This document shows, piece after piece, positions 1,783-36,506 of a DNA stretch of 64,000 nucleotides. The notes beneath the pieces were generated by a model. It saw only the letters and a list, made by a program, of their open reading frames with translations. It was not told the DNA's origin and searched no databases. Each line of letters opens with the position of its first letter. Within the stretch, counting starts at the first letter, position 1. This DNA is from Sarea resinae (taxonomy: Eukaryota): positions 1 through 64,000 of the forward strand of contig JAPEUD010000056.1 in the NCBI GenBank assembly GCA_026026165.1, given 5' to 3'. The position numbers and the translations under genes are program-made.

Positions 1783-2651
1783 TGTGATTATTTTCTTGAT
1801 TCGTAGTACAGTGCTGTAATAGTTGGTGTCTTTGGAGGATGTGCTGACGCCTTGTGCAGTGTGAATATGTTTTATTTATCTACGCTGGATTGTCTCATCG
1901 ACCTCCCCTCATGGTGTGCTCGGCTTGATTTCTAAGCTAGGTGAGGGGCGCCTATATGACATCAACATAAACATTCAGGGTCCGTCTACAGCAGAGAACG
2001 AGTGACTAATCTGAAGAACGAAAGGATGAGTAATCTGCGTGAGTAATGCGAGGGACGAGAGGAATGCGAGCAGCTACTACTGCGTTGCAGAAGTATTCGC
2101 AAATGCCATCTTCTGGCTTCGCCTTGCCTACACAGCACTACTCCGTACAACTAATGAAATGTAGTCAGTGGGCCTGCTGCCGACGATATCGTGTTTCAAT
2201 GGGATCACGACTATCCCTATCAACTTGACCTTACGGACCCGTCCAAAACAACAGTCAGTAATCGATTCAAGCATCAATCACGCATTCTCAGTATTCATGA
2301 ACATCCATGCATTCAACTATCGAACATTGAAGCCGTGAAACATTAGCTAAAAACGAAAGCGCTCGTGAAAGGGATGGCCTTAACAACCGTTGCAGTCGTT
2401 AAGCCATCCAAATGGCCCGTACAGAGGCCTCGTAAGAGAAAGTAGACGCTTGCTCAGAACCCTTTGATACCGCACGCAATCGCTGGCACAAAACATGACC
2501 GCCCTAGATGCGACTCAACCTTGAGTACATCAAGAGACGTGCATTACTGCCCAATTATTCACCACCACCACCACCACCACCGCCGCCGGAGCGGTCATTT
2601 CATCAATTCCGTCGCATCGCTTTTCAACCCCGCTAGGTACGATTTGCAAGC

Positions 2652-4231
2652 CTAGATGGCTGCAACTGGAGCTTCTCCATCAGTCTGAGGCTCGGTGTGG
2701 GCAGAGGCGGAAAACTGGTCTGCGATGGGTGTGGGCTCCTTTGAAGGAGGGGCAGGGAAGTCCGCGGAGGTATATGCTGGCTCAGTCTTAATTGGGGTCG
2801 ATACTTCCGGCTCGGTCTTAATGGGCGTAGTCGCGCTGGGGTTGGTGCTGGAAACCGCGGCTTTCTTTGGGGTAAATTCCGGAGACGTTGAGCGGGTGCG
2901 AGCAGATCCAAGATACTGGTGAGCCTTGTTGCTGTAGTCGCCTGCGTAAGACTTGACCGTTTCAGTAGTGCGAGCGGTATGCTGCTTAGCAATTTCCTTG
3001 ACTTGGTTGGCCTGGGTATGGACAATGTCTGAGGCTTGTTGGATCTGCAAATCGATGGTCTCCTTATTGCTGATGTAGGTCAATGGGATGATGTACAAGG
3101 CGACGGTCGAGATAAGAGCCAAACCCCAGAGAGGAATGAACTTGACGAGCCAGTACGAGAACAGAGAAGCAACAAAAGCCTATGTCCTGATTAATACGCG
3201 AGCTGCGTCCCACTGAAGATGAAAACTCACGACGATGGTCGCAGAAACATTCTCAGCAAACAACACGCGTTGGAACTCGATGACGAAGAAGTTGCTAAGC
3301 TCCTGGACGTCCTCCACGGCCTGCTCGAGAGTCTCTTTGGGGATAGTGTAGTACTTTCGGGGACGCAATTGGGAAGCAAATCCATTATTGAAGACAAGCT
3401 TTCCAAGGAGCTCCGCGGATGCAGTGACTAGCGCAGATTAGAAGACGTCAGATGATCAGAAGGAGAATGCTTACTTCCAAGAGCGACATAGAGGCCCTTG
3501 AAGATGTACCGGAAGATATGGATATACCGCACCGCAAAGATGAACAGAACAGTTGAAGTAAAGGAGATTGCCGTGGCACGGGGGTTCTCCCACTAGTAAT
3601 GTGAGCTTGGCAATGTATGTTGGTATCGAGGACAGCTTACACTCAAGAGGCTGTAGAACAGCGAATGGTAGTCTACAGAGATGGTCAGCCAGCGTCAAGA
3701 AAAGCCAGGATTGACATATAATCACGCGTCAAAGGTTGGCCAGTCGCTGCGGGTTGATCGGGACGAGTGCGAGAGTTTGCAAGATTCCGGAACTCAGCAG
3801 ATGTCTTCGCAGACTCAGTCCTAACGCTATCGGCAACAGGGCCTTGATACCATTAGTCGGGCATATTGAAGGACTGAGAGAAGATGCTGCATGACGTGTT
3901 AATCTTGGTATCATAAAATGTCGGCCATTGGGCGGGTAGCCTACCTTACCGTTCTGCACAGTGTCCTTGACATTCTGTGTGAGCGGGTGGTTTTGGACCG
4001 AGTTGAAGGCCGACTGAGCATCTAGAGAATCATCGTAAGTCACTGTCGAAAACGAGTGGCCTCATGAATACTATGATAGGCATCCAGGTTAGCATTCCGT
4101 CAGGAGTAATGTCGAGAGCGGGCGATGCTTACCTCACTAGAGGCAAAGCTGTCCTTCGCGTTGGACAGCGCGTTGCCGCCATTCGCAGCTGAATCCGTCG
4201 ACGGATAGGTCACGTCAGAGTGAACCGACAT
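2652..4231 (-). CDS. RTN1: Reticulon-like ER-shaping protein
   Basis: Exons 4231-4138, 4021-3950, 3842-3726, 3672-3641, 3592-3475, 3427-3231 and 3179-2652 give one open frame. Reticulon hallmarks: YHSLFYSLLSWENPRAT, two long hydrophobic hairpins, RPRKYYTIPKETLE...NFFVIEFQRVLFAEN. Confidence 0.9.
3843..3949 (-). other. Second [D5,6] stwintron of the reticulon gene
   Basis: Minus strand: GTAAG | internal intron GTAGGC...ATTAAC...TGCAG (3944-3887, 58 nt) | C. This reconstitutes donor GTAAGC of a 49-nt external intron (branch GACTAAT, acceptor CAAG at 3843). Confidence 0.7.
4022..4137 (-). other. First [D5,6] stwintron of the reticulon gene
   Basis: Minus strand: GTGAG | internal intron GTAAGC...GCTAAC...CATAG (4132-4071, 62 nt) | T. 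This reconstitutes donor GTGAGT of a 54-nt external intron ending TCTAG at 4022. Only removal of the whole 4137-4022 block keeps the frame. Confidence 0.8.
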
Positions 4232-6149
4232 CTCGGCGATTTATGAAATGAAACTTTCTGCAAGAGCTCAAATGATAAGGTAGTCGAAATGAGACTGAAG
4301 CGTCAGAAGTGTGACGAAGTAAAGAACTAAGGATCAAGCTTCCGGTGGCGATGGAGTCGAGAAGGGTGAAGGTCGGGAGGATGAATGATGAGGGAGAAGG
4401 TAAGGTAGATAGATGAGTGCTTCACTCTGGTGGTCAGGCAAAGGGAGTTTCCAGGTTTCCAGTGTTTTCATCAATGGCGTCTGTTGGCACACGACCAGGC
4501 TAGGCAAGCACGAAGTACCCAAGGTACCTCCACTCTCCAAGTCCGGCCACAAAGGGCCAAGGGGGCCTCGGGCCACATCTCAAGAGCCACAGCGTGCTCG
4601 CTAGAATTCAGTAGTCACCGACCCGGAAAGCACCGCCCAGAGCACTCGGCTGCCCATGTGGGAGAATGCCCTTGTTCGCCGGCACCACTGCTAAAGGAGT
4701 ACTTAATCTTAACATCTTACGACGGCTGCACTTCGACTGACCTGCAATGACCTGGGCTGTACATTCGTACTCCGAGTACTGATCTCACATGAAGACGACT
4801 AGTACTTCGTACCTACCTACCTGACCTAGAGTAGGTACGAGTAAAGTTGCTGCGACTACTACAGTACCTACCTTAGCTAAGGTACCTTAGCTAGGGGTAC
4901 TTCGTACTCCTTTAAACCGATGGAATCACAACACAAGACAACCGATGATGCAACCTCTCCTTCTTTTTCTCCATTCCATGCCACTGGGCTTCTCATGCTC
5001 CACCACCAAAAGGTTTCCGAAAGTTGCAACCTTCGAAGCATTCGCAGAGCAGCTTCACCTGTTCATGTATATAGATCGGCCTAATGGTTGGAAAAATACA
5101 GGTACCTCACAGTGACACGGTGTACATTGCACGATTGGAAATTAGAAGAACGAACGCATCTGAAGGAAGCCCAGTATTCTCCTCTGTTAGGCCCTTCACG
5201 GGCATCATCACGCTGCATTGCTGCATACCTTACCTACCTAGGTAGGTAGTCAGAGTATGCCACAACCAATTTTTAGCATTTACTATTTGATGTTAGGATT
5301 CTCTTCTAGACACAAAGTTATAAGATACCTTATTTTTAAGATCACTATCTAACCGCCGGATTTTCTTATGAAGTCAATGAATGATAACGTCAAAATCTAA
5401 AACAGTAATTGATAAATCAAAGGTGAATAGCTTGCGACTCTGAAAAGGTGCTATCATGCCAGAGAGTGTAGTAGTAATCACTCACCATCAGCGTATATTT
5501 ATTATCTTAGATAAGTCAGATAGCGAGACTGTTCTGAGTTAGTCGGTAGTTCCAACGAAGGTCTTCGAGGCTTCTGTTGCGAGGTCGGCACGTTCAATAG
5601 TCGGCTTATAAACACAGATCGCGAGATTAGCCCTACTACGTAGTACTGTGATCACCGAGATATGAACATCCTGTCTCCCATCTCCATCATGTTAAGCCAG
5701 TAGTGCAAGGGTGAAGCTCCAATTGAGTCAATGTCACGACCACCACAAAGCCCTGCTTTTCTGCTACACCGGTCGAATAACGTGCGGTCTCTATTTAATA
5801 TTCCAGGACGGATCGCCTATTGCCGATGCGGATGACCCAAGCCATCGAAAGGGCTTCCCACCGTTCCTGTTCATCTATCAGATTTCTGGAGTGTTCTGAA
5901 ATATCAGGAATTAGCCAGTGTATCGTGATGAGATGACGGTGGAGGACAGTGGTAAGAGTACCATATTTGGAGAATCAGCTGTGACGAGCTAAAACCGTCA
6001 TGACCACACAGTAGAGTAGGACACCAAACACAGTGGAACGGACCTCCTGTCAGCCGTCTCTAAATTAGAAAAGTCATGCTGAAAATGTTCGTTATTCCGG
6101 AAGACACACCTCAGCCACATCGCGTTCTATCTCCAGACCCGGGGCCGTT

Positions 6150-26234: not shown

Positions 26235-27130
26235 AGCCATTGCCAGACCATAGCCATAGCCATAGCCATAGACTGAGACATGATCCCAGAGAGACATTGC
26301 ACATACGTTCTTTTCGAGATGCGCTTCGTATGCGATTACTTCAGCCCAGCCCAACCTAGCCCAGCCCACACTCGACTGAGTGAGAGAGTGAGAGAGTGAG
26401 AGAGTGAGAGAGTGAGAGAGTGAGAGAGTGAGTGACATCAACAGGAGAACCCTCCACTTTCGCCCGGATCCGCCGTCGAGCTTTCCATTTCTATTACCCA
26501 TTACTCATTTATCACTAGAGAGAAATGGACGCCCGACACCACACCACCAATCTCAGCAATCTTCCCATTTACCAATCTGCCAAAAGCCAATCTGCCGAAA
26601 GCCAAGTCCGGCCAAGTCAGGCTGCGCGACATCTCCAACAACATCTCATCTCATCTCATCTCATGTCAAAGAACATCTCCAATAAGCTCCAACAAGCTCC
26701 AACGACCTCAAACGAACAAATTGCAAACAAACAAACAAACAAACAAACAGAAGGGGAAGAAAGGGATAGATAGACAGATAGACGTAGATGAACTTCCTAG
26801 AGTAGAGCCGAACCCTCCCCGTGGCTTTCAATAAAGAGAAGATAGATTGTTGTTGTTTCTTGTTTTTTGCTTCTTTTTTTCTTACTTGGAGGGAGGAGGA
26901 GAAGGGAGGGAGGGGGGGGGGGGGGGGGGGGGGGGGAAATCTTAGGGGTTGATATATACATATCTATATCTATATATATGCCTTTGTAGCTAAGATAGGG
27001 TGAGGAGGTAGGAGAGGATAGGACAGGTTAGGATAAGATAGGTAGGGTTAGGATAGAATAGGATAGGAGAAGGTAAGGTAGGCAAGGTAAGGTAGGGTAG
27101 GATAGGTGAGTTAAATCGGGTAGGATAGGT
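26235..27130. repeat. Microsatellite / low-complexity cluster
   Basis: (GCCATA)n at ~26235-26270, (GAGAGTGA)n at ~26377-26432, (CAAA)n, poly-G at 26912-26936 and degenerate (GGATA/GGTAA)n at ~27000-27130. Confidence 0.85.
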
Positions 27131-29207
27131 CGGATCCTTGGTCTTAGGAACCCCTCCCCCTATTCAACCCCTATTCACCACACCACACCACACCACACAC
27201 CACCCCTCACACATCCTAACTCACACGTCAAACTTCCCTCTCTCTCCTCCCTCCCGGCCTCACACATCCTACCTCCCCTCCCGTCTCCCCCCCGCCCCCG
27301 GCCGGCCCATCTCTCCCAAACTACGACCAAAACAACGACCAAAACAAACCATCCCATCGCACCATCGCACATCGCACCACCAGCGCCTCGTACCTCCCAC
27401 CCTTACAAAACCACAACCACCACCACCACCACCAAAAGCTGAACCAGAAATCTTAGCACAGCGAATAACAGCGCCCCAACCAGAACCAGCAGATAAACCA
27501 GGACCAGAGCAGCCACCAGAACACAGTAGCCATCAGAACAGAACACACAGGAGCCGAACTACAGACAGAAGCCAAACGCTCCAGACATGCACCTTTTTCA
27601 GAAACGCCCCCGCCATGATAATGACAATGACGACATATTATTAGCAGCAATCGATTTTCGTTCTTTCTTTCTTTCTTTCTTTCACTGGTGACAAGGGATT
27701 GATTAGGCCAGGGGATTAGAAAGTTGGAAAAGCTTGGAAATCTTAGGGAGAGAAGAGAGAGAGAGAGAGGGCTGGGGGGAAGGAGGGGAGGGGAGGGGGG
27801 AGGGGGTGTGTTGAAGATATATCTATCTATCGTTTGTTTGTTTGTTTGCCTCGTGAGGTATGCTATGCTGAGGTATGCTATACTATACTATACCATCCCT
27901 CCCATCCTGGCAGTGCTGCTTGGTGAGAGACTCAAAAAGGAAACTTTGACAAGGATAGTCCAATGAGATCAGCTGAAATCCGTCACTAAAATCTCGATCA
28001 GATCTCTCAGTGGCTCGCTGAATTCGGGGTTACACACAGCAAGCAGCACTCCCGCCAGGATAGGGGATACTATAGTACGCTTCAGACGAAGATAAGAACA
28101 AGGATAAAGATAAGGAAAGAAAGACAGTAGAGCCGAGGAAAAAAAACAGAAAAGCCGCCGACGAAGAATTATTTCTTGGACGCGAGATGCACTTCCAAAT
28201 GCCAAGGTTCCAAGATTTCAAGGTTTTAAGGTTCTTAAAGTATGGCTAACGGGAGCTTTGTTGTGAGTGAGTGTGTGGTAGTGTGGGTATCTTTGGGCAA
28301 TGGAGCGGTTTTTTGCATTCATGTGTTATCTTATCTAGGTTAGTTTTGAATGGTATGGTATGGTATGGTACGGCATATATGGTACGCGGGGTGCTGTAGC
28401 ACGGCCACGTGGAGTCTCTCAATACAGTAATGCTGAAGCGGTACGGCGACTGCGAGTGAAATTATCCGTGTTTGATATTATCATCTCTATTTACGTGTTC
28501 ACTGTCTGAATTTCTTGCTGCCAGGATCGCGGGACGGAAAAGCCAGCTAGACACCAAGGTATGATGACACACGTCAAGGCACTATTGACTCGACTGAGCT
28601 TCGCTTTACTACCTACCTACTAAGGCAAGATAGTCTGGCGATGGTGCCGTCATTCGTCTTCTGCTTCGACGCATTTGGCTAGGTGAAAAGTAGGTAAGAG
28701 AGATAGAGAGGTGGGCCTGAGTATAAAGCGCAAGTGCGGATTCGAATGTTCAGGGGTATCAATCAATCCAACTCCGAGGACGTGAGGTGGCGAAAAGGAA
28801 GAAGTGGAGGTGGGCCAAGCGGCGACCAGGTGTTCCCTAAGATTGAAGAAGAAGAGAACTTGAAATAGGAATACCGCTGCTTCAGGCACTCTGCCGAATC
28901 CGTAAAACGCTCGCTCGCTGACAACGCTCACGATGGCTCCGAAAAAAGAAAATGAAAAATTTAGTAAACCACATATGCCACGCTATGCAATGATTTGATC
29001 TGCTCCGGTTTCCGGCACAATCCCATGCCGATAAAACAATGAGAAGACAAAACACCTCGCACAGCCAAACAAGACAGACGGAAATGATCAATCGAAAGTG
29101 CCCGTGTGCTGAGGCGGTAGAGAAAAGAAAACGAATACATCCGTAGCATCAGTCGTGATCCAGAAGACATGACGCTGGGAGATCTTTGAATCAGATCAGA
29201 CCACCAC

Positions 29208-35069: not shown

Positions 35070-36506
35070 TCAAGCAATCACATCATTTGCATCTCTCTCT
35101 CTACCTTCTTCATCTCCTTGTGCACCCTCCAGCTCTCCACCATAGATTTCCCTCAGCACCTCCCTTATCTCCTTCAAGAACCGGTCGACTTCCTCCTTAG
35201 TGCCCACCGTGATCCGCAAGCACCCCTGGCAACCATATTCCTTCCCCCGAAATCGCACAACGACTCCCTTGGTCTCCGCCAAGGCCTCATAGACTGCCAG
35301 AGCCGTCTCATTAGAAGGCTTCCCGTCCTTCTCTCGCGGCTTATCTAGGATCTCAACGAGTAAGAAATTCGAGTCGGTACCACCCAGAAATCTACCGACG
35401 CCAGGGACTCTTGGTAACTCCCGCAGCATCCGCTCGCGCTGCGTTAGGATCTTTGCTTTGCTCTGCTGTGTGATTTTGAGATTGTCAGCCTCGAGCGCGG
35501 CGCAAGCTAGCTGGCTTGTGGGACTCGAGATATTATAAGGTGCTTTGAGACTGTTGAGGAGTCGGGCGATCGGCGGACTCGTGAATGCGGCGCCTAGTCT
35601 GATACCCGCGAGGCCGAAGGCTTTACTGAGCGTCTGCATCACTACCAGATTTGGCCACTCGTTGACCCAGCCTGCGAGACTGGCATCCTCGGGTGCAAAG
35701 TCTATGTATGCCTCGTCCACCACTACCACGCCGTTCCAGGTGGGGTGCAGTAAGACCTTTTCGATATCGGCCTTTGCGATGAGATTGGCGGTTGGGTTAC
35801 CGGGAGAGCAAATATAGACGAGCTTGATAGACGGATCGGACGAGAGTGCTTCTTCTATAGCTTCTGCGCGTAACGAGAAGTGGTTTGCAGGGTCGAGCGG
35901 AACTTTGACGATCCCGACATCGTTGACCTGTGCGGATACCGAGTACATGCCGTAGGTGGGCGGACAGGTGAGTATTTTGTCCCGCCCTGGGGCACAGAAG
36001 CACCTTAGAAGCGCATCGATTGCCTCGTCGGAGCCAACGCCCACGAAGAGGTTCTCGGGCGTCAATGGCTTGTCTGAATGGTGGCGGGTGTTTCGAAGGT
36101 TGCAAAGTAACTGCTTCAACTCTATCTGGTGTCTGCAAGCGGCTTGTCAGAAAAGGCCAGTGAAACCGCAGGTGCCCTTGGGCGGTCGAGTTTACGTACG
36201 GATCCGGGTATCTGTTGAGACCATGGAGATCAATCTCTAGATTCTTCGCGATCGCGTCTCCCTTGACCGCGCCATTGACCAGGCGCCCGTCCGGCGTGAG
36301 AGCTAGGCCCGGCCCATTGGCATTCTCGTTCGCATCGAGCAGAATGTTCGTGCCGTCATCTTTGTAGTCACTGCCTCATCAGCTGAAGAACATATGCATT
36401 AGCCAATGCGAAGCACTCACTCTCTTGCGCAGCGGTAGGGCTCCAGCGCGAGTATGTTTGGTCGCGCGCAGGTTTCGAGATTGAATGCGGACTTGCGAGA
36501 TACCAT
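35070..36506 (-). CDS. HIS5: Histidinol-phosphate aminotransferase
   Basis: Three exons. LLDANENA, LNRYPDP, GVGSDEAID, CSPGNPT, VVDEAYIDF, PLP-lysine motif TLSKAFGLAGIRLG, LRITVG. Confidence 0.96.

Follow-up and report, generated by a model that had tools for sequence, protein, structure and literature searches.

Two candidate [D5,6] twin introns in the reticulon-like gene rtnA of Sarea resinae

The reticulon locus and its transcript

We analysed a stretch of 64,000 nucleotides from Sarea resinae (contig JAPEUD010000056.1, positions 1 to 64,000; hereafter the window). Its minus strand carries a reticulon-like gene, the rtnA orthologue, whose coding region (2652..4231) runs from an ATG at 4231 to a TAG at 2654-2652. 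The joined open frames and an RNA contig give a gene of 7 exons encoding 385 amino acids, and a domain search placed the reticulon domain (PF02453) at residues 101-258 of the product (E 3.5e-31). Gene model and RNA contig together define the coding part of exon 1 (4231-4138, 94 nt, phase 1 at its end), exon 2 (4021-3950, 72 nt, phase 1 on both sides) and exon 3 (3842-3726, 117 nt); the model continues with exons 4, 5, 6 and 7 at 3672-3641, 3592-3475, 3427-3231 and 3179-2652. Four canonical introns of 53, 48, 47 and 51 nt (3725-3673, 3640-3593, 3474-3428 and 3230-3180) span 3180..3725 together with exons 4-6. The first two intervening sequences, IVS1 (116 nt, position 1) and IVS2 (107 nt, position 2), are about twice as long as these four (47-53 nt), and both are phase 1 in the gene model. 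If the nested units described below are counted separately, all eight unit introns fall between 47 and 62 nt. The gene has the features by which the rtnA orthologue group is recognised, PF02453 and phase 1 at both positions, with its candidate twin introns in the part encoding the disordered N terminus; phase 1 at the rtnA positions holds in most taxa (PMC6616335). Within the 3' UTR of the reticulon gene, at 2500-2595, lies a trinucleotide-type repeat with H, P and T runs in the three plus-strand frames; flagged as a repeat, it was excluded from the transcript alignment.

Transcript evidence came from X1, a public metatranscriptome of assembled contigs in which 0.49 of the sampled words were present. 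One contig of 1600 nt (X1 record 1) aligns to 2596-4327 with five mismatches and a single 1-nt gap, and skips exactly 51, 47, 48, 53, 107 and 116 nt, corresponding to all six predicted introns. The alignment leaves a 2-nt ambiguity at the IVS2 borders, for which 3949..3843 is the sole GT..AG reading. The differences between contig and window lie at 2858, 2967, 3282, 4281, 4283 and 4300 (five substitutions and one 1-nt deletion), and the protein predicted from the contig (P0001, the query in our searches for relatives) differs from the gene model at 2 of 385 residues, 147 and 318. Because of these base and residue differences, we assign the X1 transcript to a different strain, of the same species or of one very close to it. 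The contig represents the mature form alone; assembled contigs drop rare variants, and a one-step splicing route would yield an identical mRNA.

Farther along the window, minus-strand positions 35070-36146 form an exon of a histidinol-phosphate aminotransferase gene (PF00155). Over 99% of its length the exon product matches the Sarea resinae protein P0134 with 100% identity; the next best matches are 74-79% identical.

Nested donor design of IVS1 and IVS2

IVS1 (4137-4022, minus strand), of which the RNA contig skips exactly 116 nt, is a candidate [D5,6] spliceosomal twin intron (stwintron) with the double donor GTGAG/GTAAGC. Reading the sequence, the first five bases of the outer donor, GTGAG, occupy 4137-4133 and are followed by a predicted inner intron of 62 nt (4132-4071) with the donor GTAAGC, the branch motif GCTAAC at 4093-4088 and the acceptor TAG, which lies 18 nt past the branch A and is the first AG after GCTAAC. 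The outer remainder (4070-4022) begins with T4070, the base that would complete the donor GTGAGT, and ends in the acceptor TAG at 4022, giving an outer unit of 54 nt. A DYURAY branch motif was not found in this outer unit, the nearest candidates being AGTGAC/ACTTAC at 4044-4035. Since the RNA contig uses the TAG 4022 acceptor, some branch site in the outer unit must work by any route. Compared with CAG/GTAAGT, the inner donor matches at 7/9 positions and the outer donor as transcribed at 5/9, and restoration to GTGAGT would raise the outer donor from 5/9 to 6/9.

IVS2 (3949-3843, minus strand; 107 nt skipped by the RNA contig) is a candidate second [D5,6] stwintron with the double donor GTAAG/GTAGGC. 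Here the first five outer donor bases, GTAAG, read at 3949-3945, precede a putative inner intron of 58 nt (3944-3887) with the donor GTAGGC, the branch motif ATTAAC at 3903-3898 and the acceptor CAG, located 12 nt past the branch A and again the first AG after the branch motif. The outer remainder (3886-3843) would contribute C3886 to a restored donor GTAAGC, and contains the branch motif ACTAAT at 3857-3852 and the acceptor AAG, so that the 49-nt outer unit (GTAAGC, ACTAAT, AAG) is complete. Use of AAG, not YAG, as the outer acceptor is confirmed by the RNA. The inner donor GTAGGC is weak, with G at +4, and falls outside the GURWGH motif of the literature (PMC6616335). Two further properties of IVS2 count against a two-step reading: the donors tie, with 6/9 matches each for the outer donor as transcribed (ACG/GTAAGG) and the inner donor (AAG/GTAGGC), and removal of the inner unit leaves the outer donor score unchanged at 6/9. 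We also observed that an AAG acceptor followed by G at position 2, as in the window at 3843-3845, has a counterpart in the canonical 52-nt IVS2 of two related loci (L078/L079), which likewise ends in AAG.

An earlier note on this DNA had proposed the same nested design for both intervening sequences, an immediate stop after removal of the first inner intron only, and final junctions 4138^4021 and 3950^3842 flanking an in-frame exon of 72 nt. On re-reading the minus strand we could confirm all coordinates and motifs, the frame left by removing inner intron 1 alone does stop, at codon 36, and both junctions are present in the X1 contig, which keeps exon 2 in frame. Use of the IVS2 outer donor together with the proximal branch site and acceptor (3949 to 3887) would also lead out of frame, with a stop at codon 108. 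All partly spliced forms that we tried terminate early except the exon-2-skipped form, which keeps the frame. The segment encoded by exon 2 is conserved across classes in the protein alignment.

Double donors at orthologous loci

We searched metagenome contigs for relatives, using 15 aligned RtnA proteins as the query. The scan matched 493 stretches, 208 of which encode relatives, and the best 80 of these 208 were kept; among the best 80, many loci are spliced transcript contigs and others contain introns.

At position 1 we compared 30 chosen sequences from which near-identical duplicates had been dropped. The end of exon 1 is visible in 25 of them, and 23 of these 25 have the double donor; the exceptions are L049, with a canonical single intron, and L069, with a degenerate inner donor. 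The base following the inner acceptor of IVS1 is T in 20 of 23 distinct sequences (printout read by eye), as a restored donor position +6 would predict. L035 and L066 have A at this site, and L057/L077 have G or A.

The position 2 set comprised 21 sequences, the window and 20 loci that have an intervening sequence there. All 14 long IVS2 sequences (101-112 nt) carry a GTNNG/GTNNG double donor, and they represent 8 distinct lineages (window, L050, L052, L055, L057/L073-L077, L061/L063, L067 and L068). The short IVS2 sequences (52-60 nt) have a single donor in 6 of 6 cases, from 5 distinct lineages (L022, L035, L059, L066 and L078/L079). The remaining sequence is the transcript L018, which retains 48 nt. 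Length and double donor therefore coincide without exception at position 2. The nested design described in the earlier note recurs in relatives at both positions. Within the long IVS2, G6, T7 and G10 are constant in 8/8 lineages, whereas +8, +9 and all other intron positions vary. The base following the inner acceptor varies over the 8 lineages (C, G, A, C, T, A, C, A; L050 read by eye) and, because of this variability, there is no clear selection for a restored +6 at IVS2, which argues against a two-step reading there. The double donor of the window IVS2, GTAAG/GTAGGC, is also present at IVS1 of L036 and L038, and inner donors of the type GTAGG[CT] occur at IVS1 of L036, L038 and L050.

Three transcript contigs among the loci bear on splicing. 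The mRNA contig L011 is 100% identical to genomic L050; in it both double-donor sequences are removed and the 72-nt exon 2 is left. Compared with the genomic loci L029/L033, to which it is 93-98% identical, transcript contig L016 (1-190) is without the IVS1 inner unit of about 200 nt and keeps the outer unit. By its sequence it looks like a splicing intermediate in another fungus; alternatively, its source may be a species in which this inner unit has been lost. In transcript L018 (270-330) IVS1 is removed and 48 nt starting with GTGAGA are kept at IVS2. This form would fit an IVS2 intermediate in another fungus, its closest genomic counterpart among the loci being about 84% identical.

Motif scans of the window

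A donor-like hexamer at +6 to +11 is present in 2 of the 6 RNA-verified introns, the two long ones only. The probability of GTRNGH at a fixed position is about 0.006 in random sequence, and finding it in 2 of 6 introns corresponds to about 5e-4 (hand arithmetic). Over the whole window the combined motif GTRAGGTRNGH occurs 7 times, compared with 0.98 expected. We considered the five further matches as stwintrons and rejected them, two being in simple repeats and three without evident coding context. Independently of the gene, the regions 26880-27130 and 27660-27900 are intergenic and of low complexity, with a G run of about 35 bases and with GGTAGG/ATAGG-type and CTTT repeats; they contain two spurious double-donor matches.

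A strict stwintron regular expression built from the published motifs GTRWGH, DYTRAY and HAG detected neither IVS1 nor IVS2 in the window, and did detect stwintrons in the relatives L073, L057, L077, L068 and L059. It misses the two in the window because the inner donor of IVS2 is outside GURWGH and the outer unit of IVS1 is without DYURAY. An ORF-bridging heuristic for the frequency of G at donor +6 in the window returned 33 candidates with many overlapping false calls; it was too noisy and was left unused.

Relatives and public gene models

The protein search returned 991 RtnA relatives, including the RtnA of Helminthosporium solani (P0086). The best named relatives, from Pycnora, Varicellaria, Candelina and Xylona, are 55-60% identical. 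We built a quick tree from 53 proteins with a named source organism, picked from 133 returned, plus P0001, and gave it the class labels that we take these organisms to have. In this 53-protein quick tree the window RtnA is sister to that of Xylona heveae (SH-aLRT 85), and the two lie within a larger group that also takes in Sclerophora, Thelocarpon, Peltula and Geoglossum and is weakly supported (87). NCBI taxonomy places Sarea resinae in the class Sareomycetes; one revision, in the available part of its text, puts Sarea together with Xylonomycetes (PMC9157775).

Public RtnA models from Geoglossum, Mycoblastus and Chrysothrix (P0002, P0003, P0004 and P0014) contain insertions of about 8-30 residues at the junctions of exon 1 with exon 2 and of exon 2 with exon 3, visible in columns 60-160 of the RtnA protein alignment A1. 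These insertions are probably translated parts of nested introns. A protein named Sarea resinae was not found among the best 120 RtnA matches, although the protein of the neighbouring gene is in the database. The spurious insertions and the lack of a Sarea resinae RtnA among the best 120 suggest that gene callers mishandle nested introns.

Proposed two-step splicing and its alternatives

We consider it probable that IVS1 and IVS2 of this rtnA orthologue are [D5,6] spliceosomal twin introns of the published kind, each removed in two steps. RNA at the outer borders and the conserved design support the nested architecture, and we infer the two-step order from the literature and the design. In the proposed mechanism, an ordinary short U2 intron would interrupt the donor of another short U2 intron after its fifth base. 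Under intron definition, in which fungal spliceosomes match splice sites over a short intron, the inner donor would engage the closest branch site and acceptor, and the inner unit (62 or 58 nt) would leave first. This would join the five outer donor bases to the sixth (GTGAG+T and GTAAG+C), at the predicted intermediate junctions 4133^4070 and 3945^3886. The restored outer unit of 54 or 49 nt would be excised in a second reaction, and four reactions in total would clear IVS1 and IVS2, retaining the conserved 72-nt exon 2.

This scheme has precedents. A [D5,6] stwintron is found at position 1 of rtnA (AN5404 in Aspergillus nidulans) in almost all Pezizomycotina, as surveyed over 754 orthologues (Kavalecz et al. 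2019, PMC6616335). Its splicing intermediates were cloned from A. nidulans, A. niger, B. cinerea, T. reesei, N. crassa and H. solani, and an EST represents an intermediate in Tuber (PMC6616335). For many Dothideomycetes, Xylonomycetes and Lecanoromycetes the survey predicts a second [D5,6] stwintron, and in Helminthosporium solani both rtnA stwintrons were demonstrated experimentally (PMC6616335). The novelty that the earlier note implied for the doubled form is consequently gone: it was described in 2019 and verified in H. solani (PMC6616335). The doubled [D5,6] layout is already published for rtnA, and the window is a further orthologous example, not a discovery.

The alternative that fares best concerns IVS2, where a one-step route is a more serious rival than at IVS1 because both donors score 6/9 and restoration changes nothing. 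IVS1 would be a working [D5,6] stwintron, and a single step from GTAAGG to the distal AAG, via ACTAAT, would account for most of the removal of IVS2, whose inner signals would be a weak or relict alternative. An inner donor equal in score to the outer one, with a G at +4 that takes GTAGGC out of the GURWGH motif, speaks for such a route, as does an unconserved base after the inner acceptor, and the X1 contig, being mature mRNA alone, accommodates it too. We nevertheless regard this mixed arrangement as rather unlikely. Retention of G6, T7 and G10 in 8/8 distinct lineages and the coincidence, without exception, of IVS2 length with the double donor speak against it; a second stwintron has been shown experimentally in H. 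solani (PMC6616335), and the unusual inner donor has GTAGG[CT] counterparts at IVS1 of L036, L038 and L050. Moreover, as the proximal product (3949 to 3887) is out of frame with its stop at codon 108, the one-step route must bypass a good proximal branch site and CAG.

Both intervening sequences might also be ordinary long one-step introns with inner donor- and acceptor-like motifs that are incidental or non-functional here, a reading compatible with the observed RNA, which is mature mRNA only, with a length of 107-116 nt, which falls inside the fungal intron size range, and with the failure of the strict published motif set to detect either window stwintron. It is highly improbable in view of the IVS1 double donor in 23/25 sequences with T following the inner acceptor in 20/23, the clearly better U1 match of the inner than of the outer IVS1 donor (7/9 vs 5/9), and the intermediates cloned for the position-1 intron in six species and found as a Tuber EST (PMC6616335).

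Comparison with known stwintrons

Returning to two candidate [D5,6] stwintrons as the preferred reading, the closest known system is the H. solani pair. It resides in the same gene (the H. solani RtnA, P0086, is 55% identical to P0001), at the same two phase-1 positions and with the donor again split after base 5; its two stwintrons are separated by a conserved exon, as are the two intervening sequences of the window, and this exon measures 72 nt in the window and in L050. The window differs from the published pair in its weak inner IVS2 donor GTAGGC, in the AAG acceptor of the outer IVS2 unit and in an outer IVS1 unit without a canonical branch motif, and its nested splicing is predicted where that of H. 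solani was demonstrated.

In A. nidulans, position 1 of AN5404 is occupied by a phase-1 [D5,6] stwintron, and four canonical introns come after it in the part encoding the reticulon domain (PMC6616335), a layout comparable to that predicted for the window. Aspergilli have a canonical intron 2 and an exon II of 24 or 15 nt (PMC6616335), whereas the window has an IVS2 of twin design and an exon 2 of 72 nt. The dual intervening sequence of Onygenales, in the 5' part of rtnA, requires four consecutive U2 reactions, the number proposed for the window (PMC6616335). There, however, stwintron and intron 2 both lie inside a discontinuous fourth intron, a second-order intron whose excision takes exon II out of the mRNA (PMC6616335). 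In the window, by contrast, exon 2 is present in the X1 contig and in frame, and the four reactions proposed are grouped two plus two, not three plus one. The [D4,5], [D6,7] and [D7,8] complex intervening sequences of Lipomyces rtn, as presented in the available part of their description, are likewise donor-disrupted nested introns of phase 1 in a disordered N-terminal coding region; according to the same part, they differ from the window in subphylum, intron position and donor split points (PMC7138796).

The class of the window organism, Sareomycetes, is not named in PMC6616335, and in the main texts of the literature no stwintron was found together with Sarea or Sareomycetes. The locus contributes a gene model, backed by RNA, in which two intervening sequences are of the [D5,6] type, from Sareomycetes, a class close to the Xylonomycetes named in the survey. 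It agrees with a wide distribution of the position-2 twin intron beyond Eurotiales and Sordariomycetes.

The doubled cassette might serve regulated skipping of exon 2, in that the restored outer donor of IVS1 would pair with the branch site and acceptor of IVS2. In A. niger and N. crassa a restored outer donor used with IVS2 sites does cause exon skipping, from a single stwintron. If this applied to the window, skipping of exon 2 would give a second, frame-preserving RtnA isoform lacking 24 residues. We think such a role quite unlikely here. Skipping of exon 2 keeps the frame, and the lone X1 contig shows the exon-2-containing form only (contigs drop rare variants).

A conserved 10-mer in the outer units of relatives

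The 10-mer GCTCGCGTGA was not found in the window. In relatives it is conserved within the outer unit of IVS1, in 18 loci from at least six distinct lineages (L005/L006, L054, L057, L060/L062/L065, L069-L072, L073-L077 and L078/L079), about 40 nt upstream of exon 2. A single IVS2 outer unit contains it too (L055, position 162), and a further copy in L067 lies far upstream of the gene. In all, 20 loci carry GCTCGCGTGA, compared with about 0.5 copies expected by chance over all loci, and it is positioned upstream of each intron's own branch motif.
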